64,000 nt of DNA from a bacterium (GTDB lineage Bacteria > UBA8248): NCBI GenBank assembly GCA_965203325.1, contig OZ241875.1:3936001-4000000 (forward strand). The letters run 5' to 3'. Shown here in pieces: positions 2,573 to 44,469 of this stretch (the first letter of the stretch is position 1; each line of letters starts with the position of its first letter). Both the position numbers and the translations under genes were made by a program. The notes under the pieces were generated by a model that saw only the letters and a program-made list of their open reading frames with translations, did no database searches and was not told where the DNA came from.

Positions 2573-3940
2573 ATGGTAAACGAGCGTGATCCGAGACTTC
2601 TTCGCGTAGAAGACATGGTGCGTCGGCTTTTAAGGCACAAGGCCGACGCTAACCTTTCCAATGCGCTGGAAAAAATGCACGCGGCCGAAGTGGCGCAGAT
2701 TTTTCAGCATTTCCTGCCCGAAGAACGCCAGGAAGCGTTTTCCCTCGTCCAAAATCGTGAGCACCGCGCCTCCATTCTGACGGAATCGGATTCTCACATC
2801 GTACGGGAACTCCTGGAGCCGGTGTCGAATCAGGACGTCGTCCCACTGATCAAGGAATTGGACAGCGACGACGCGAGATACATTCTCGAAACCCTGCCAG
2901 ATGAGCGTTCCCAGGAAATCGTTGCGCTCCTCGATGCGCCGGAAACAGAGGCGATACAGGACATGATGGCGTATATGCCGGAAACCGCCGGCGCCATCAT
3001 GACGGATTCCTATGTGGCTCTTCCCGAGGAGCTTACTGTGAATGAGGCCATCTCCCAGGTGCGGAAAGCGAGCGAGGTGGACTATATATTCTATGTGTAC
3101 GTCATCGATTCGAATGGTTGCCTGAGAGGGGTGATTACTCTTCGTCAACTCTTGCTGGCGGATCCGTCCAAAAGCTTGTCCGAAATCATGATTACCAACG
3201 TCTGGAGCGAAAACGTACATGCCGACCAGGAGCACGTCGCACGCGTCGTCTCTCGCTACAACATTTTGGCCATACCCGTTGTGGATGACGACAACGTCCT
3301 GGTCGGAATCATCACGGTGGATGACGTGCTCGACGTCATCAGAGAAGAAGCGACCGAGGATATCCTGAAAATGGCGGGAACGCACTCCTATCAAGACGAG
3401 GTGACGTCGCTTTCCGCAAGGCGCCTTGCGTGGATTCGTTTACCCTGGCTGTTCTTCAGTTGGCTGGGGGGCATTCTCGCCGCCCAGTTGATCCATCAGT
3501 ACTCAGACCAATTGAGTAAAATTGTGGCTCTCGCCGCGTTCATGCCGGTTATCATTGGTATGGCGGGCAACGTGGGCACACAAAGCGCCACCATCGTGGT
3601 GCGTGGCTTGGCGACAGGGCGCATCGATCCCAAATCATGGCTTCGCGTCATCTCGAAAGAGGTGGCCGTCGGGACGCTTCTGGGCATTTGCTATGGCTTG
3701 TTGTTGGGGTTGTTGGCAACGTACCAGTTCGCCTCCGTCGCCTGGTTGGGCTTCGTCGTGGGTCTTGCGATATGCGTGGTGATGATGTTCTCTGCCCTTC
3801 TGGCCTCGTTTTTACCGTTGCTGCTTCATCGTTTTCGGGTGGATCCCGCCGTGGCGACAGGGCCTTTCGTCACGACCGGGGTCGATGTCCTGGGACTTTT
3901 GATTTACTTTAACATCGCTCGTTTCTTTCTTTTTTCATAA
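2573..3940 (+). CDS. mgtE: Magnesium transporter MgtE
   Basis: MgtE_N helices, tandem CBS domains (YVYVID, IPVVD), RLPWL, GNVGTQS and DPAVATGPFVTTGVD transmembrane motifs. Confidence 0.95.
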   Translation: MVNERDPRLLRVEDMVRRLLRHKADANLSNALEKMHAAEVAQIFQHFLPEERQEAFSLVQNREHRASILTESDSHIVRELLEPVSNQDVVPLIKELDSDDARYILETLPDERSQEIVALLDAPETEAIQDMMAYMPETAGAIMTDSYVALPEELTVNEAISQVRKASEVDYIFYVYVIDSNGCLRGVITLRQLLLADPSKSLSEIMITNVWSENVHADQEHVARVVSRYNILAIPVVDDDNVLVGIITVDDVLDVIREEATEDILKMAGTHSYQDEVTSLSARRLAWIRLPWLFFSWLGGILAAQLIHQYSDQLSKIVALAAFMPVIIGMAGNVGTQSATIVVRGLATGRIDPKSWLRVISKEVAVGTLLGICYGLLLGLLATYQFASVAWLGFVVGLAICVVMMFSALLASFLPLLLHRFRVDPAVATGPFVTTGVDVLGLLIYFNIARFFLFS

Positions 3941-3961
3941 CCGCTCATAGGTTAATCCGGC

Positions 3962-4387
3962 TTGGCTCTTTCCATCGATTTCCGTGTAAGGTATGCCGAA
4001 ACCGACCAGATGGGCGTGGTGCACCACGCGGTCTATTATGTGTGGTTCGAGCAGTTGAGAACGGAGTATTTTCGTAAAATCGGGTTTCCCTACGGGCAAC
4101 TCGAAGAACAGGGCGTTTTCTTTCCCGTGGTGGAGAGCCGTTGCGAGTACAAGGAAGGCGCCCGGTATGATGGCGAGGTGAGGGTCACCGGCTGGTTCAG
4201 AGAGCCCGAGGGCGTCCGGGTCCGGATCGATTATCTGGTGGAGCAGGAGGGGCGGATTCTGGTGAAAGGCTATACGCTTCATGCGAGAACCGATGCGGGC
4301 GGAAAACCAAGACGCATTCCGCCTGAAATTCTCAAAAAGATAAGAGAGGAGGCCGCGCCCGTCCCAGAGGGGGTGCATCTGAAGTAG
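3962..4387 (+). CDS. Acyl-CoA thioesterase (YbgC/4HBT hotdog family)
   Basis: RVRYAETDQMGVVHHAVYYVWFE signature. Confidence 0.9.
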   Translation: MALSIDFRVRYAETDQMGVVHHAVYYVWFEQLRTEYFRKIGFPYGQLEEQGVFFPVVESRCEYKEGARYDGEVRVTGWFREPEGVRVRIDYLVEQEGRILVKGYTLHARTDAGGKPRRIPPEILKKIREEAAPVPEGVHLK

Positions 4388-4461
4388 CGCAAGTATTTTG
4401 AAACAGCCGCAGTGCCTGTATAAGAATTCAAGAGACATATACCGGAAAATTGAGGAAATTG

Positions 4462-7074
4462 ATGCTCGGCGAATATAGTCCATCAAGTTACGAGGAAAAG
4501 TGGCAGAATCATTGGGCACAGGAGAAGATTTTCGAAACCTCCGATCATCCCGGTGAGAAGCCCACCTATTATTCCCTGATGATGTTTCCCTATCCGTCGG
4601 GTGACCTGCACATGGGCCACGCCTGTAACTACACGATGGGCGACGCCATCAGTCGTTACCGGAAGATGCGCGGCTTCGAAGTCTTACACCCCATGGGCTG
4701 GGACGCCTTGGGGTTGCCCGCGGAGAACGCCGCCATCAATGCCGGCGCGCACCCCGCCGAGTGGACGAAAAAAAACGTCGACAACATGAGACGCCAGCTT
4801 CGCATGGCGGGTCTCGCCTATGACTGGCCACGCGAGATTTCCACAGCGCATCCGGGCTATTACAAGTGGACGCAGTGGATATTCCTCAAAATGTTGGAGA
4901 ACGGCCTGGCGTATAAACGCGAGGCCCTCGTCAATTGGGACCCGGTGGATGGCACGGTTCTCGCGAACGAGCAGATTCACGACGGCATCGCCTGGCGCAG
5001 CGGGGCCAAAGTGGAAAAACGCTGGCTCAGCCAGTGGTTCTTGAAGATTACCGACTATGCGCAACGCTTGCTCGACGATCTGGATGGCCTCGTCGGCTGG
5101 CCCGAGCACGTCAAGCAGCAACAAAGAAACTGGCTGGGGCGCAGCGAGGGTGCGCGAATCGATTTCAAACTCGAATCGACCGGCGAGACGCTCTCCGTGT
5201 TCACCACCAGACCGGATACGGTATACGGCGTCACTTTTATGGTCTGTGCGCCCGAGCATCCTCTCATCGATCAACTGCTGGAGGGCAATCCGCGCGCGGA
5301 TTCCATCCGCGAGGCCGTGGAGGTCATGCAGGCCCAGAGCGCTGCGGAGCGCATGAGCGAGGAGAGCGAAAAAACAGGCGTTGAAACGGGTCATTTCATC
5401 ATCAACCCCGTCAATGGTGATCGCGTGCCCTTGCTCGTAGCCGATTACGCGCTGATGGAATACGGCACGGGCATCGTGATGGGCGTGCCCGCGCACGATC
5501 AGCGCGATTTCCTTTTTGCCAGGAAATACGGCATCCCCGTCAAGGTGGTCATCCAGCATCCCGAGGGGGGGCTCGCTGGCGACACGATGGAGCAGGCCTA
5601 CACCGAAGACGGCGTGATGGAGAACTCTGGTCCCTTTGACGGGCAGCCGAACCGCGAAGCGTATCCGAGGATGATCGATTATTTCGCAGATAATGGTTTT
5701 GGGGATAAGACCATCAACTGGCGCCTGAGAGACTGGCTCATTTCGCGTCAGCGTTATTGGGGGGTGCCGATTCCCGTCATTTATGAGGAAGACGGCAGCA
5801 TCACTCCGGTGCCGGACGACCATCTGCCCGTCATGCACCCACGCGACGTCGAGTTCACGGGCCGGGGCGGAAATCCTCTGGATCAGAGTGAAGATTTCGT
5901 GAACGTCATCAGTCCGAAAACAGGCAGGCCCGCGCGCCGTGAGACCGACACGATGGACACTTTCGTGGATTCGTCCTGGTATTACCTGCGATACGTGAGC
6001 CCCCGCGATGATGACGCCGTATTCCAGTCGGAAAACGTGAACCGCTGGCTGCCGGTGACGCAGTACATCGGGGGGGCGGAACACGCCGTCATGCACCTGC
6101 TGTACTCGCGGTTTTTCACAAAAGTGCTCTACGACCTGGGGCTCGTCTCCTTCGAAGAGCCGTTCGAAAATCTCTTCACCCAGGGAATGGTATGCAGGAT
6201 GGCCTATTATGTGGCCGATGCGCGTGGCCGCATCTGGGTGCCTTATCAGGATGTGGACGAGGAATCTCTGGTCGTCACGACGGACGGCCCAACTGGCAGT
6301 GGCTACGAGGCCGGGCAAAAAGTGCTCACCGAGATGGCCTCGATGAGCAAATCGAAGATGAACGGAGTCTCGATTGAAGAATGCACGGGGAAATACGGGG
6401 CGGATGCGGGCAGGCTCTATACGCTGTTCATCGGCCCTCCCGAGCGCTCGAAGGAATGGCGCGATGACGGCCTGATCGGCGTGCACCGCTTCCTGCAAAG
6501 GCTTTGGAGCACGTTCTCAGAGCGCCTCGAAGGCTGGCGGGAAGCGGAGGCCTATTCAGGGGATGGGGATGGACTATCCGCTTCAGGGAGAAAACTCAGG
6601 CGGGACGCCCACGCCACCTTGAAGGCTGTGACGGAAGTTTATGCGCACTCCTTCTCGTTCAACACGGCGGTGGCGCGCATCATGGAACTGGCCACGTCGC
6701 TTCGTGCAGAGGCCAATGCCGAAAATGCGGCGCAGCGCGAAGCGGCCCAGATTCTGCTTTGCTGTATGGCGCCCATGGCGCCTCACGTTGCTGAGGAGCT
6801 CTGGCAGGCCCTGGGCACGGGTGGGGGAGAGGCGAGTATCTTCCGTGAAACATGGCCGGAGGTGAACGAGGCGGCCATTGCCGCCGAGGAGAAAGAATTC
6901 GCCGTACAGGTAAACGGAAAGACGAGGCGCACGTTCATGGCGCTGCCGGACGCGTCGGAGGAGGAATTGAAGAAAAAGGCGGAAGCCGTAACGGCCGGCT
7001 ATATCGGCGATAAAGAGATCGTGAAGCACATCGTCGTGCCCGGTCGTCTGGTGAACCTGATTGTGAAGGGGTAG
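4462..7074 (+). CDS. leuS: Leucine--tRNA ligase
   Basis: MFPYPSG..HMGH, editing-domain FTTRPDT and VPAHDQRD, DWLISRQRYWG, SMSKS, C-terminal VPGRLVNLIV. Confidence 0.98.
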   Translation: MLGEYSPSSYEEKWQNHWAQEKIFETSDHPGEKPTYYSLMMFPYPSGDLHMGHACNYTMGDAISRYRKMRGFEVLHPMGWDALGLPAENAAINAGAHPAEWTKKNVDNMRRQLRMAGLAYDWPREISTAHPGYYKWTQWIFLKMLENGLAYKREALVNWDPVDGTVLANEQIHDGIAWRSGAKVEKRWLSQWFLKITDYAQRLLDDLDGLVGWPEHVKQQQRNWLGRSEGARIDFKLESTGETLSVFTTRPDTVYGVTFMVCAPEHPLIDQLLEGNPRADSIREAVEVMQAQSAAERMSEESEKTGVETGHFIINPVNGDRVPLLVADYALMEYGTGIVMGVPAHDQRDFLFARKYGIPVKVVIQHPEGGLAGDTMEQAYTEDGVMENSGPFDGQPNREAYPRMIDYFADNGFGDKTINWRLRDWLISRQRYWGVPIPVIYEEDGSITPVPDDHLPVMHPRDVEFTGRGGNPLDQSEDFVNVISPKTGRPARRETDTMDTFVDSSWYYLRYVSPRDDDAVFQSENVNRWLPVTQYIGGAEHAVMHLLYSRFFTKVLYDLGLVSFEEPFENLFTQGMVCRMAYYVADARGRIWVPYQDVDEESLVVTTDGPTGSGYEAGQKVLTEMASMSKSKMNGVSIEECTGKYGADAGRLYTLFIGPPERSKEWRDDGLIGVHRFLQRLWSTFSERLEGWREAEAYSGDGDGLSASGRKLRRDAHATLKAVTEVYAHSFSFNTAVARIMELATSLRAEANAENAAQREAAQILLCCMAPMAPHVAEELWQALGTGGGEASIFRETWPEVNEAAIAAEEKEFAVQVNGKTRRTFMALPDASEEELKKKAEAVTAGYIGDKEIVKHIVVPGRLVNLIVKG

Positions 7075-40080: not shown

Positions 40081-40216
40081 GGCGTTATCTCCAGAAATCA
40101 GCGGAAAAACGTGGATGCGCCGGCGATGGCGCTTCTATGCCGTGTTTATGAGCTTCACCGCCCGTGCATGAGGGGGCCGCGGCGGAGTGTGCACCCACCC
40201 CCGCGCCTCGCGCGCG

Positions 40217-40612
40217 TTACTCCATGTCGAACATCGCCGTGGACGCGACCTCGATCAGGTTGTTTTCCGGGTCTCTAAAGAAGATTTGGGGATACCCGTA
40301 AGGCTCGTCGTGGAACGGGATGCCGTGCGACTTGAGCCGTTCTTTCATACCTGCCAGATCCTCGGTCACCATCCCGAAGTGGTGGTCCATATAGCTGTCT
40401 TCGTTGTCGCTGATGGAATGCTTGACGTGCGTGTCGCTCACTTTGGCGAGGTGAATCTGATGGTCCTCACCCGCCTCGTACCAATAGCCCGGGAAGGGGA
40501 AGTGGGGCCGGGGCATTTCGGGCAGTCCCAGGATTTCGTTGTAAAACTTGTGCATGGCCGGCAAATCCCGGCAATAGATGCTGAAGTGCTGCAGGAACTT
40601 GATCTTGGACAT
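40217..40612 (-). CDS. VOC/glyoxalase family protein
   Basis: LQHFSIY..FYNEILGL, HHFGM, IFFRDPENNLIE; SD GAGGAG. Confidence 0.88.
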   Translation of the reverse strand: MSKIKFLQHFSIYCRDLPAMHKFYNEILGLPEMPRPHFPFPGYWYEAGEDHQIHLAKVSDTHVKHSISDNEDSYMDHHFGMVTEDLAGMKERLKSHGIPFHDEPYGYPQIFFRDPENNLIEVASTAMFDME

Positions 40613-40756
40613 CAGTGTCTCTCCTCGGGTTGTCGGGTGCTTTCTCACACTAATAATGCTCTTTTCCCTCTCTGGCAAGGCGCGGCTCCGGCGGGGATAT
40701 TCAAATCCGCCCGATTGTCGTATTCTCAGGAAAACACCAAACCGGAGGATTCCCCC

Positions 40757-42160
40757 ATGGCGGGTCGTTTCGTGATCGAAAACGCCTGCGTCCTCACCCA
40801 GAACGAGGCGCGTGAGGTCATCCCCCGTGCGTCGGTGCTCGTCGAGGATGGCCGCGTCGCGGAGATCTCAGTATCCCGAATTAACGCAGGCGCAGCGCAG
40901 GTGGTCGACGGCGAGGGGATGGCGCTCATGCCGGGGCTGGTGAACGCCCACAGCCACATCATGTGCATTCTTTTGCGGGGCGGCCTGGGTGCGGACAGGC
41001 GGCTGATGGACTGGCGCCTGAACGTCATGGCGCCCGGCCAGGTGGCCTATACGCCCGGGGATGCGGCGCTCTCCGTAAAACTCTTCGCGTGCGAGGCGAT
41101 TCGCTCGGGCACCACCGCGGTCGTGACGAACGAGCGCATCCCCATCCCGCTGGCCGAGGCGATGATAGAGGCCATGGACGATTCGGGCATGCGGAGCGTC
41201 TTCGCCTTGAGTTTCAACGAGATGTCGCCACAGGGAAAACTCGCCGAGCGGGCGCATTCCCACATCGCCGCCTGGGGCAAGACCTTTCCGCCTAGCCTCA
41301 AGACGAGGGATGAGGTGTTCGAGGAGACTTCCCACCTGGTGGACAAGTACCACGGTCGCTCAAATGGCCGGGTTCTCGTCTGGCCGGGGCCGAACATCCC
41401 CGTCTACGTGAAGCCCGAAACCTTCCGCGAGGTGGACGAATGGGCCGGCGCGCGCGGCCTTCGCGTTTCCACGCACGTCTCGGAAGACCCGATGGAATCG
41501 GAAGTAGGCGGTCTTCCCGTCGTGCAGCACCTGGCCGCCTGGGGCCTGCTCTCGGAGCGCCTGGTGGCGGGCCACTGCATTCACTTGAGCGAGGAGGACA
41601 TACGGCTCCTCAAGGAATCAGGCACGCAGGCCGTGCACCTGCCCTCGAGCAACATGTATCTCGGCTCCGGAATATCGCCCGTGCCCAGGATGCTGGGTTA
41701 CGGCATTCCCGTGGCCTTGGGTACGGACAATGCGAATTGCAATGATCTCGCCAACATGTTCTGGGAGATGCGCCTCGCCTGCCTGCTCCACAAGGGGGTG
41801 CACCAGGACCCCGCTGCCATCACGGCGCAGGAGGTGCTCGACATGGCCACGCGCAACGGCGCGCGCGCGCTCGGCCTGGAAGAAGAAATCGGGAGCATCG
41901 AGGTGGGTAAGCGGGCGGACATGATTCTGCTCGACATGAGCGGTCCCCACATGTTCCCGAACCACCATCTGCCTTCCATCCTCACCTATCAGGCGCACGG
42001 GACGGAGGTGCGCTGGGTCTGGGTGGACGGCGAGCCGCTCATGGAGGCGGGGCGTTTGAGCAAGATAAGCGAAGATGAGGAACGCGCGATTCGCGAGGGG
42101 GCGCAGGCGGCGTCTGCGGCTATCGTCGAGCGCGCGGGCCTGATGGTTCCGGGAGTTTGA
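40757..42160 (+). CDS. Amidohydrolase family deaminase (AtzA/AtzB/TriA/MtaD-like)
   Basis: PGLVNAHSH, THVSE, AGHCIH, LGTD, GSIEVGKRAD; SD GGAGG before ATG 40757. Confidence 0.92.
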   Translation: MAGRFVIENACVLTQNEAREVIPRASVLVEDGRVAEISVSRINAGAAQVVDGEGMALMPGLVNAHSHIMCILLRGGLGADRRLMDWRLNVMAPGQVAYTPGDAALSVKLFACEAIRSGTTAVVTNERIPIPLAEAMIEAMDDSGMRSVFALSFNEMSPQGKLAERAHSHIAAWGKTFPPSLKTRDEVFEETSHLVDKYHGRSNGRVLVWPGPNIPVYVKPETFREVDEWAGARGLRVSTHVSEDPMESEVGGLPVVQHLAAWGLLSERLVAGHCIHLSEEDIRLLKESGTQAVHLPSSNMYLGSGISPVPRMLGYGIPVALGTDNANCNDLANMFWEMRLACLLHKGVHQDPAAITAQEVLDMATRNGARALGLEEEIGSIEVGKRADMILLDMSGPHMFPNHHLPSILTYQAHGTEVRWVWVDGEPLMEAGRLSKISEDEERAIREGAQAASAAIVERAGLMVPGV

Positions 42161-42208
42161 TGCGGCGCTTGCGCATCGAGCGCTTTTGACGAATGAGGAG
42201 GCCCAATC

Positions 42209-43315
42209 GTGTTTGATACCCAGGTGGTGAAATTTCAGATGTCGGGGCCCGAGGACGTCTCGGGCCTCGCGGCGGCGGTGGCGGAAGGCCGGATTCAGGC
42301 GGCGGACATTCAGGCCATCATCGCCAAGACCGAGGGCAACGGCCGGGTGAACGACTATTCGAGGCCCTACGCGCTCCATTCCTTCGAGGACTACATGATG
42401 GAGAAGCTCGATCTTTCCCGCGACGAGGTGCAGGGCATGTGCGCCATGGTGATGTCGGGCGGATGCGAGGGGATCATGAGTCCACACGCGGTGGCGTTTT
42501 CCAAGACCGACGTGGGCGACGCCGAGAGCCCCGGCGAGAAACGCCTCTCCATGGGAGTCGCCTTCACCCGTGAGCTTTTGCCCGAGGAGTTGGGCACGAT
42601 GGCGCAGGTGGACATCGTGGCCGAGGCGGCCGCGAAGGCGATCGAGAAGGCGGGCGTGGATTCGCTGGATGACGTGGGCTACGTGCAGGTGAAGTGCCCG
42701 CTCCTGACGTCGGACCGCATCAACGATGCGGCCTCGCGCGGCAAGAAAGTCGTGAGCACGGACACCACGCGTTCGATGAGCCTCTCGAACGGCTGCTCGG
42801 CCCTCGGCGCGGCGGTGGGCATCGGGGAGATCCCCCGCGATTCGTTCGAGATAACCGACGTGTGCAGCCGGGGCGACCTGTATTCGGAGATGATCTCCTG
42901 CTCGGCGGGCGTGGAACTCATGCGTTCGGAAGTCGTCGTGTTGGCGAATTCCTCACAATCCGTGAGCCGCTACAAGATCGGCCGGGCGGTGATGCAGAAC
43001 CTGATCGACGCAGACGCCGTCCGTCAGGCGCTCAGAAACGCCGGGCTCGCCTTTGACGGCCTGCCAAGTCAGGGCGATTTGAACAAAGTGGTGCACGCGT
43101 TCGCGAAAGCCGGCGCGCCGTGGGACGGCAGGCTTCTGGGCAAGCGCGTCACGTTGCTCACGGATTCGGTTCTGGGCACGCGGCCCGTGCGCGCGGTGGC
43201 GAACGCCGTCATTGCATCGGTGGTGCAGGACCCGGCGGTCTACGTCTCGGCGGGCCTCGTTTTCCACCAGGGGCCGGTGGGGGGCGGCGTGGTTTCCGCC
43301 ATCATCGAGGCGTAG
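42209..43315 (+). CDS. Ring-opening cyclic amide hydrolase (cyanuric acid hydrolase AtzD/barbiturase family)
   Basis: KTEGNGRVNDYSR, VMSGGCEG, VQVKCPLLT, SCSAGVE, YVSAG..HQGPVGGG. Confidence 0.93.
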   Translation: MFDTQVVKFQMSGPEDVSGLAAAVAEGRIQAADIQAIIAKTEGNGRVNDYSRPYALHSFEDYMMEKLDLSRDEVQGMCAMVMSGGCEGIMSPHAVAFSKTDVGDAESPGEKRLSMGVAFTRELLPEELGTMAQVDIVAEAAAKAIEKAGVDSLDDVGYVQVKCPLLTSDRINDAASRGKKVVSTDTTRSMSLSNGCSALGAAVGIGEIPRDSFEITDVCSRGDLYSEMISCSAGVELMRSEVVVLANSSQSVSRYKIGRAVMQNLIDADAVRQALRNAGLAFDGLPSQGDLNKVVHAFAKAGAPWDGRLLGKRVTLLTDSVLGTRPVRAVANAVIASVVQDPAVYVSAGLVFHQGPVGGGVVSAIIEA

Positions 43316-43429
43316 AGATGGAGTGAAGGGCAGAATGGTCAGGGAGAAGAGCGCCTGGAAAATTTTGATGATAAGGTGTTGAAATATATGGAACTGAGAT
43401 TTTCCGGCGCTTGTGAGAACAAAAAATGC

Positions 43430-43458
43430 TTGACACGGAAACCGTCATTCGCTACGAT
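43430..43458 (+). promoter_or_regulatory. Strong sigma70-type promoter
   Basis: TTGACA-17 nt-TACGAT with an A-tract upstream. Confidence 0.75.
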
Positions 43459-43497
43459 TTTAGAGTACAAATCGCAAGTAGCAAGAGGAGGGCTGTC

Positions 43498-43593
43498 ATG
43501 GTAAGAAACTTGATAGTAACCGCCTACGACACATCTCTCCGGAGGGTTCTGAAAACGGCTCACCACCGGAAGAGGGTTCTGAAAAAACCCTAA
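43498..43593 (+). CDS. Small basic ORF, 31 aa (MVRNLIVTAYDTSLRRVLKTAHHRKRVLKKP)
   Basis: AGGAGG 6 nt before the ATG; lies between a promoter and a terminator. Confidence 0.5.
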   Translation: MVRNLIVTAYDTSLRRVLKTAHHRKRVLKKP

Positions 43594-43645
43594 ACTGCCC
43601 CTTGGTGTTACCTGAAACGGAACATTGAGGGAAACTCAAAAACAG

Positions 43646-43678
43646 CAGGCGGCGTCGACGGGCGTCGCCTGTTTTTTT
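43646..43678 (+). terminator. Intrinsic terminator
   Basis: CAGGCGGCGTC-GACG-GGCGTCGCCTG followed by T7. Confidence 0.8.
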
Positions 43679-43739
43679 GCGCGTTTTTGGAGGAGGGCGG
43701 GGAGACCCCCTCTCCTCCGAAAGCGTCGAAGCCCTCCTT

Positions 43740-43776
43740 CCTCACCCTGAGTAGCGGCGAAGCCGCGTATCGAAGG
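43740..43776. repeat. REP-like repeat family A (CCTCATCCTGAGTAG..hairpin..GTATCGAAGG)
   Basis: Other copies at 35354-35391(-), 50131-50168(+), 50208-50244(-), 55452-55488(+), 55529-55567(-). Confidence 0.85.
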
Positions 43777-43783
43777 GGGGCCA

Positions 43784-44221
43784 CTACTCCCCGTGTCCCG
43801 GCGGGCGGCCCCGGTTCATCTCGTCGGGTTCTTCGGCGAACTCCATGCGGCTCTTGATGGCGTCTATCGTGAAATCTTCCTTGTCACCGGCCAGTTCGGG
43901 GTTCCACATCGGGTAGAACACCTCGAGCGCCATCCCCGGCTCATCGCTCACCAGCTTCAACGTGTGCATCGCGCCCGCCTTGACGTGCACCACGTCGCCC
44001 GGCCCGATCCGCCGCACCTCGTCTTCGAGCGTGAACTCCCACTCGCCCGCCTGGATGTAGAAGAACTCCTCGTGATCGGGGTGGTTGTGCAGCTTCGACG
44101 GCGTGCCGCCCGGCTCGGTAATGAGGTGCTGCATCTGGATGTTGTCGCCGAAGATCCGCCGGTGCGCGACGCCGGGGCGGTCGTGGCTCAAGGGGAGCAT
44201 GTCCCAGTTGTAGAAACTCAT
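43784..44221 (-). CDS. Cupin domain protein
   Basis: LHNHPDHEEFFYIQAG...GPGDVVHVKAGAMH. Confidence 0.9.
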   Translation of the reverse strand: MSFYNWDMLPLSHDRPGVAHRRIFGDNIQMQHLITEPGGTPSKLHNHPDHEEFFYIQAGEWEFTLEDEVRRIGPGDVVHVKAGAMHTLKLVSDEPGMALEVFYPMWNPELAGDKEDFTIDAIKSRMEFAEEPDEMNRGRPPGHGE

Positions 44222-44469
44222 GGTGTATTCCTTCATCGTGAGAGGCGGAAAAAATTTCGTTTTTGAACACGAAGCCTTGACGTATTCGGCCTCGTGAAGC
44301 ATGCGCGGGCATTCTAGGGGCAGGAGACGGAATAAGACAATCCGCGCACCTGGCCACATGGGTGAAAGGAGGCAGGGACCCTGCTTTGTCTGGCCGTGCG
44401 CGCCTCTGTAGGATACACTCTTCCTACTCGCATTCTACTTTACGTGGTGATTCGGAAGAGGAGATGGAT

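Follow-up and report, generated by a model that had tools for sequence, protein, structure and literature searches.

A stand-alone transcription unit that probably encodes an orphan basic micro-protein under hairpin-gated translation in a bacterium of the UBA8248 lineage

Several kinds of small transcripts and micro-proteins known from bacteria and their phages can be compared with the locus considered here. Type I toxin mRNAs of the hok, tisB and aapA1 type are small and structured, and their Shine-Dalgarno sequence and start codon are held in a hairpin. The lambda N/boxB system combines a short arginine-rich peptide segment with small purine-loop hairpins of the same transcript. Tiny basic ribosomal proteins are represented by bTHX of Thermus, bS22 and bL37 of mycobacteria, bL34 and bL36. 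Finally, SR1/SR1P of Bacillus subtilis (PMC3526287) and VcdRP/VcdP (PMC8672173) are dual-function small RNAs which, together with SgrS/SgrT, RNAIII/Hld and AzuCR, are characterized, in the retrieved parts of the sources, by a transcript about 200 nt long that has a promoter and an intrinsic terminator of its own, a micro-ORF of fewer than 50 codons and conservation of both peptide and RNA features.

The locus under study is situated in a window of 64,000 nucleotides (the whole stretch of DNA analysed) and shares all of these traits with the dual-function RNAs, but has no sequence or Rfam relationship with them; its peptide is far more basic, and its host belongs to a small uncultured phylum, with no Hfq found in the genome. 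With type I toxin mRNAs it has in common a small structured mRNA whose Shine-Dalgarno sequence and start codon lie in a hairpin. It was nevertheless rejected as a type I toxin because the peptide contains no hydrophobic, membrane-spanning stretch (the longest is LIVTAY); in addition, no conserved antisense promoter or antisense RNA was seen. Positions 43430–43680 form an independent unit, which is, in our opinion, probably the mRNA of an orphan, lineage-specific basic micro-protein with structure-gated translation; the gene itself and its architecture deserve at least that degree of confidence. The features of the unit and of its neighbour are as follows.

43421–43426, plus strand: A-tract similar to an UP element, which may act as one
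43430–43435, plus strand: –35 hexamer TTGACA, found by promoter scan
43453–43458, plus strand: –10 hexamer TACGAT, found by promoter scan, with a 17-nt spacer from the –35 hexamer
about 43464–43466, plus strand: transcription start, predicted from the promoter rather than mapped
43486–43492, plus strand: Shine-Dalgarno sequence AGGAGGG (AGGAGG at 43486–43491), 5–6 nt before the ATG
43490–43525, plus strand: start hairpin, in which codons 4–10 pair with the start codon and the 3' portion of the Shine-Dalgarno sequence
43498–43593 including the stop, plus strand: ORF of 31 codons and TAA, translated as MVRNLIVTAYDTSLRRVLKTAHHRKRVLKKP
43542–43555 and 43572–43585, plus strand: two copies of the 14-mer GAGGGTTCTGAAAA, coding for R-V-L-K
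43599–43631, plus strand: post-stop hairpin of 13 pairs with one bulged A and the loop UGAAAC
43644–43680 (stem 43644–43673), plus strand: intrinsic terminator found by scan, with a 13-pair stem (eight G-C pairs), a loop of four and T7
43784–44359, minus strand: convergent cupin gene (Pfam Cupin_2, 1.5e-15; conserved core 43787–44218), outside the transcript

Most of these elements had already been noticed in a reading of the sequence alone, and the promoter, the perfect AGGAGG six bases before the ATG, the duplicated R-V-L-K motif and the strong terminator all proved to be present as described. The promoter scores 10 of 12 against the consensus, and the scan of the 1.6-kb region gave three promoter-like sites versus 0.3 expected from shuffles. 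CTTGACA occurs in 22 of 22 aligned genus sequences and the form CTTGAC in three of the four loci outside the genus, while the –10 position is occupied by TAnnAT-like hexamers in most relatives and by TATACT in three of the four out-genus sequences. GGAGG is retained in all 26 sequences of the alignment, and the terminator is kept among relatives with compensatory changes in three of its pairs. Since the sequence on its 5' side is A-rich, it may serve as a terminator for the convergent cupin gene as well, but it was not flagged on the minus strand in the same terminator scan. A promoter-like site was found by the scan on the minus strand (43484–43457) and is absent from relatives in the genus alignment. 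The small gene is present in a single copy in its own genome, and its stretch has 45–52% G+C as compared with 60–70% in the surroundings and 60.4% in the genome. The minimum free energy of the 218-nt RNA is –79.1 kcal/mol (z = –4.0), and none of 200 shuffles was as stable.

Two other elements lie behind the terminator. A G/C-rich palindrome, 43686–43722, consisting of an arm beginning with GGAGGAGGG and the complementary arm, follows it directly and was found in some members of the genus but is missing or replaced in others. Between the terminator and the cupin stop codon, a repeat of about 38 nt (43740–43778) has 40 more matches scattered over the same genome (E ≤ 0.001, 81–100% identity), and it drew unrelated RNA contigs onto 43740–43777.

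Of the eleven RNA runs holding a part of the stretch, four were compared, one per study; their sources were marine, coral reef and two sponge metagenomes. The small gene is covered by RNA contigs in all four. These contigs come from relatives 90–99% alike, and neither strand nor transcript ends are readable from them. Word depth, a per-contig mean that may pool strains and is a poor measure of expression, was 83 for the contig of run X1 (43485–43653) versus 3.3 on the upstream gene, 3.2 for that of run X3 (43481–43653), 940 and 3865 for the two contigs of run X6 (43493–43697 and 43529–43642, respectively; 3865–4805 in the comparison with 10.2 on the upstream gene), and 77 for the contig of the fourth run (43479–43662). 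The contigs of X1 and X3 both stop at 43653, and two contigs run into sequencing adapters near 43651–43653. No contig of the four runs lies over 43408–43475, and neither this gap nor the shared stop at 43653 is readable as a transcript end. There is, therefore, good evidence that the transcript exists, as had been predicted, and a hint that it is abundant. The earlier proposal of a stand-alone unit of about 215 nt also holds: what was found is a discrete short transcript with its own conserved promoter and terminator, as expected of a dual-function small RNA, with predicted ends.

Run X6 also contains a 503-nt contig of a relative (43493–43970), which extends from the small gene over the terminator into the 3' part of the cupin gene, and in which 69 different letters replace 43698–43739. 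It may represent either read-through from the small gene or cupin mRNA running into it, and contigs cannot distinguish these cases.

Using a DNA search, the small gene was found in 21 of the 22 other genomes of the genus (E 2e-23 or better, 72–94% identity), and in the same number of genomes the promoter, ribosome-binding site, 31-codon ORF, post-stop hairpin and terminator occur together. It was not found in one genome, G017, which is 79% complete. Conservation of the ORF and hairpins in relatives had been suggested as a check, and both the ORF and the post-stop hairpin are kept within the genus. In distant members, the DNA match spans the region from the Shine-Dalgarno sequence to the terminator, and in a wider alignment the flanks beyond the promoter and terminator are unalignable. 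Of 51 genomes of the phylum, which is one class in the genome collection searched, 26 gave a match to a peptide profile, each with exactly one copy. The carriers belong to three of nine genera, all of one family (21/22, 3/4 and 1/1 genomes), and elsewhere the profile gave 0 of 24. The DNA of the two other genera was missed by the DNA search, but their peptides still contain RKRVLK.P. No elements other than the peptide motif, start hairpin and terminator are common to all carriers.

Outside the genome collection, a stringent degenerate DNA pattern found seven loci in a metagenome collection, all of two known forms, and, when 1.84 billion predicted proteins were searched with a profile, one cluster of 31 residues was obtained. 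A protein of 1596 residues from the same search, reported without an aligned stretch, was taken as a compositional match and set aside.

The cupin gene follows the small gene convergently in all three carrier genera and, across the family, was found in 41 of 42 genomes. It codes for a single-domain protein of 144 residues with 89–100% identity within the genus and 65–85% across the family; among solved structures, it comes closest to domains of quercetin dioxygenase, DMSP lyase and oxalate decarboxylase (E 1e-8 to 1e-4). Beyond it, a PepA-type aminopeptidase is located. Upstream, 40187–43315 is occupied by two co-directional genes encoding a 657-residue protein of the amidohydrolase family and a 368-residue ring-opening amidohydrolase of the AtzD/TrzD type (cyanuric acid/barbiturate hydrolase family, Pfam 2.5e-123), and this pair recurs in most genomes of the genus. 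The upstream neighbour varies between genera, and the convergent cupin is the only conserved one. Where the small gene is missing, in one genus, the gene that lies upstream of it in other genera (ending in ...WEKYLG) abuts the cupin directly.

This arrangement bears on the idea that the unit is a leader or attenuator, either orphaned, as the sequence-only reading had suggested, or active, or else that it encodes a Pro-stop arrest peptide controlling read-through of the terminator antisense to the cupin. The constancy of the convergent cupin speaks in its favour, as do the concentration of conservation on the C-terminal residues, the Pro-stop ending found genus-wide and the X6 contig running from the ORF across the terminator to 43970. 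Moreover, the distance from the stop codon to the 5' arm of the post-stop hairpin is 5 nt, so that this hairpin would be opened by a ribosome terminating there, and an alternative fold considered below (TTGAG/CTCAA) would then be possible. However, the earlier reading was right that no same-strand gene follows; the next gene is the cupin on the minus strand in all three genera, and the leader or attenuator reading falls because there is no same-strand gene to regulate. Furthermore, no pairing alternative to the terminator arm (an antiterminator) was found in single-sequence or consensus folds, the ORFs of two genera do not end at that proline (KNPE and KHPD), and the bridging contig is strandless and possibly the cupin mRNA itself. 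Such a role is, in our opinion, hardly conceivable.

The 31-codon ORF, as previously proposed, bears a genuine coding signature in relatives. Its length is 31 codons in all 22 genus sequences, closed by TAA, TGA or TAG, and 32–35 codons in four genomes of the two other genera (for example, MARGVMTSSGKRARRRVLTTPSGRKRVLKKPVTAP). Among 25 distinct sequences, synonymous changes account for a share of 0.37 of the differing codons when frame 0 is read, versus 0.14 and 0.085 for the two remaining sense frames, which contain 117 and 9 stops. The antisense frames show shares of 0.09–0.29, and the median dN/dS is 0.38 in frame 0 versus 0.77 and 1.38 in the other sense frames. The residues M1, K25, R26, V27, L28, K29 and P31 are invariant across genera, and the conserved core can be written as R-[RK]-V-L-K...R-K-R-V-L-K-x-P. 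Synonymous exchange is distributed unevenly along the ORF, with a share of 0.61 in codons 15–31 and 0.15 in codons 2–14, the latter resembling a non-coding frame. In the C-terminal half, all four GTN codons were seen at Val17 and Val27, CTG, TTG and CTC at Leu28, and CGG, AGA, CGA and CGC at Arg24, where the exchange between CGG and AGA is a two-base change that still gives Arg. From this codon-level comparison, the ORF may be taken to code for protein, with good confidence for its C-terminal half.

Purely non-coding function, with the ORF being incidental, has some support in the N-terminal half, which is without protein-level constraint, in the rare AGG codons that are kept, and in four GAGGG motifs. 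The latter suggest one special form of this explanation, a CsrA-type sponge acting through GGAGGG, AGAGGG and UGAGGG. Against it stand the fixed length of a frame that stays open in 26 of 26 sequences, the synonymous exchange and the Arg24 switch in codons 15–31, and the peptide motif kept between genera whose DNA went unmatched. As to the sponge, CsrA (PF02599) was not found in the 95.5%-complete genome, in which positive controls were detected, and the GGA/GAGGG motifs are in stems or codons and not in exposed loops; the candidate was rejected. A more general suggestion of a protein-titrating RNA did not find confirmation, since neither CsrA nor Hfq was found in this genome. A non-coding RNA thus appears highly improbable.

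Another layer of constraint is superimposed on the protein code. The codon AGG, accounting for 0.08 of Arg codons in the long ORFs of the genome, is used at Arg16 in 20 of 21 and at Arg26 in 21 of 21 distinct sequences; GCC at Ala9 and AAG at Lys25 show no change among relatives, and ACG at Thr20 differs in one sequence only, by an amino-acid replacement. The fixed AGG, GCC and AAG codons therefore reflect an RNA-level constraint. Codon use is atypical in general (GC3 of 0.61 versus 0.72 in long ORFs), and seven codons of the ORF have a relative use of 0.15 or less.

One of the two conserved RNA structures of the unit is the start hairpin. Its inner stem of eight pairs has 84% of cells paired in 22 distinct sequences, whereas slid controls gave 18–62%. 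Compensatory changes occur in two pairs, the two outer ones, in which C-G/U-A is replaced by U-A/C-G in other genera; this joint switch is probably one evolutionary event. Local minimum-free-energy hairpins of –11 to –21 kcal/mol bury the region of the Shine-Dalgarno sequence and AUG in 21 of 22 distinct sequences, and the lone sequence without such a hairpin carries a 2-nt insertion. RNAalifold predicts the start hairpin, too. Because this hairpin pairs codons 4–10, the N-terminal half is probably constrained as RNA rather than as protein.

There are also arguments against a plain micro-protein mRNA. The low synonymous share of codons 2–14 and the atypical codon use do not fit it well, the invariant AGG and other synonymous sites represent an RNA constraint that an mRNA does not need, and the 3' untranslated region with hairpins, longer by about 200 nt in two genera, seems to exceed what mRNA stabilisation requires.

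Downstream of the ORF, the post-stop hairpin is, judging from the alignment, the best-supported RNA element of the unit. Its cells are paired in 220 of 221 cases (99.5%; slid controls 39–54%), seven of its 13 pairs vary and two of them do so with compensation. Three of its pairs in a row are wobble pairs (U-G, G-U, G-U), and its loop is conserved. A covariance model of this hairpin gave one significant match in the genome (59.5 bits; the next had E = 0.78) and nothing at E ≤ 10 in the four out-genus loci; the hairpin sequence is, consequently, genus-specific.

The sequence-only reading had drawn four successive hairpins with related loops, which were tested on 22 genus sequences. The first one (GAGGGTT/AACGGCTC) is not a helix as drawn, with 44.8% of cells paired, no better than slid controls. 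The second (AGGGTT/AACCCT) is paired in 92.4%, but it is uninformative, being without covariation and having breaks that are uncompensated. The third (TGTTACC/GGAACA) is real but was incompletely drawn, as it is the tip of the 13-pair stem at 43599–43631. The fourth (TTGAG/CTCAA) is paired in 88%, but it uses the 3' arm of this long stem; the two are mutually exclusive because they share the arm, and the fourth can be only a possible alternative fold. The notion of related loops was not borne out: the first hairpin fails, and the two loops inside the ORF drift synonymously. CUGAAAA changes there to CTC AAG or TTG AAA in relatives, and because this drift is synonymous, it is a coding repeat and not a conserved RNA loop. 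Of the earlier statement that the structure extends outside the ORF and is more than a coding repeat, the first part is upheld by the post-stop hairpin and the second does not apply to CUGAAAA.

In two other genera, the 3' untranslated region is about 200 nt longer and carries at least two further hairpins before the conserved terminator (four loci, L052–L055). Located about 100–300 nt after the ORF, their stems differ between genomes with the pairing kept, for example, GGCCGG...CCGGCC, GACCGG...CCGGTC and GGGCGG...CCGCCC. This longer region may be a separate RNA element.

The hairpins and the peptide together recall the lambda N/boxB system. As in the latter, there is a short basic segment, with nine Arg/Lys and two His among the last 17 residues, as well as purine-loop hairpins on the transcript, and a wobble-rich hairpin with a conserved loop stands 5 nt past the stop. 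Autoregulation of this type would mean that the Arg/Lys-rich peptide binds hairpins of its own or similar transcripts and controls translation or termination. The analogy with boxB, raised in the sequence-only reading, does not withstand comparison of relatives: no conserved GNRA-like loop of 5 nt exists, the loop of the second drawn hairpin is 7-nt and changes synonymously, the first one is no helix, and the only conserved hairpin is single in the genome and unrecognisable in other genera that keep the peptide motif. Unlike N, the basic segment here is C-terminal and constitutes nearly the whole protein, and there is no phage context. We regard this mode of action as very unlikely.

Searches for known families gave no relatives of the unit. 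Rfam 15 had no match at gathering score in the 64-kb window, the best sub-threshold hit (24.9 bits versus a gathering score of 55) covering only the terminator, and no match at E ≤ 0.1 in the four out-genus loci; so, a search proposed earlier as a possible refutation has revealed no known RNA family. Pfam, NCBIfam, PHROGs and PADLOC contained no family for the peptide or for 17 aligned peptides, the best scores (E = 0.013–0.08) belonging to unrelated or unnamed families, and the ESM Atlas had no usable match to the peptide. Among the literature matches listed, the retrieved parts of papers on Nitrospinota, sponges and metatranscriptomes did not have small RNAs or micro-proteins as a topic.

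The peptide resembles tiny basic ribosomal proteins in size (25–45 residues), very high content of Arg and Lys, lineage-restricted distribution, strong promoter and Shine-Dalgarno sequence, and apparently high expression. Unlike the known ones, it has no Pfam family, and comparison of its profile with the PDB, which contains ribosome structures, gave no match at E ≤ 10. Ribosomal protein L34 was rejected as its identity; a bona fide L34 is encoded elsewhere in the genome (66.5 bits). AlphaFold2 predicts one helix over residues 2–23 with moderate confidence (pLDDT 71), which would be followed by an extended RKRVLKKP tail; the model is too small for a fold search. Prediction of a complex with the neighbouring cupin gave a score of 0.00, uninformative either way.

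The main rival to a micro-protein mRNA is a dual-function RNA, in which the transcript would encode the peptide and, besides, regulate by base pairing or protein binding, with the start hairpin keeping most of the RNA untranslated. This remains in play because there is conserved RNA structure outside the ORF, and one of the earlier suggestions is, accordingly, half supported: a coding ORF and such structure are combined here. The constraint acts both inside and outside the ORF (AGG, GCC and the near-fixed ACG codons), the post-stop hairpin of 13 pairs has a conserved loop, nearly every sequence has its Shine-Dalgarno sequence and AUG buried in a hairpin, word depth far exceeds that of the neighbouring gene, and an additional structured region is found at the 3' side in two other genera. 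According to the retrieved parts of a review (PMC12310071) and of the papers on SR1 and VcdRP (PMC3526287, PMC8672173), known examples share size and layout with the locus. At the same time, no target or seed region was identified and no Hfq found, the post-stop hairpin is genus-specific by the covariance model, and only the peptide motif, start hairpin and terminator are universal. A second, regulatory function thus seems possible but fairly unlikely.

Returning to the micro-protein mRNA, which we consider the best explanation, the following mechanism can be proposed. The start hairpin, in which codons 4–10 occupy the AUG and the 3' portion of the Shine-Dalgarno sequence, would throttle or gate translation, while the post-stop and terminator hairpins may shield the 3' end and help the RNA to accumulate. 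Like other bacterial micro-proteins, the peptide would most likely act by binding, either to a nucleic acid (the ribosome or another RNA) or to a larger protein, although this step is pure conjecture.

An undescribed RNA–peptide module, composed of a very abundant, mostly untranslated regulator RNA of about 215 nt and an RNA-binding peptide, is also conceivable, although distinctly unlikely. If it exists, the peptide would be a new tiny RNA-binding regulator or a lineage-specific ribosome-associated protein, and its target would be the ribosome, the post-stop hairpin of its own mRNA or some other transcripts.

Summarizing the data, it may be concluded that, on present evidence, the micro-protein is a new family within a known kind, micro-ORF RNAs, and not a new principle; the interest is chiefly for specialists in small RNAs and small proteins. 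In uncultured bacteria, annotation nearly always passes over micro-proteins and small RNAs, and the gene described here is represented by one cluster in 1.84 billion predicted proteins. At the same time, by contig depth, which is a poor measure of expression, its RNA is among the more strongly represented transcripts of the carriers in marine, coral-reef and sponge metatranscriptomes. The locus offers a clean case of dual code in a short sequence, the N-terminal half reflecting the start hairpin and the C-terminal half the peptide. Should the latter bind RNA or ribosomes, the known families of tiny nucleic-acid-binding proteins would be joined by a new one. A single small gene with RNA structures conserved across three genera thus provides a good handle on the self-regulation of these symbionts.
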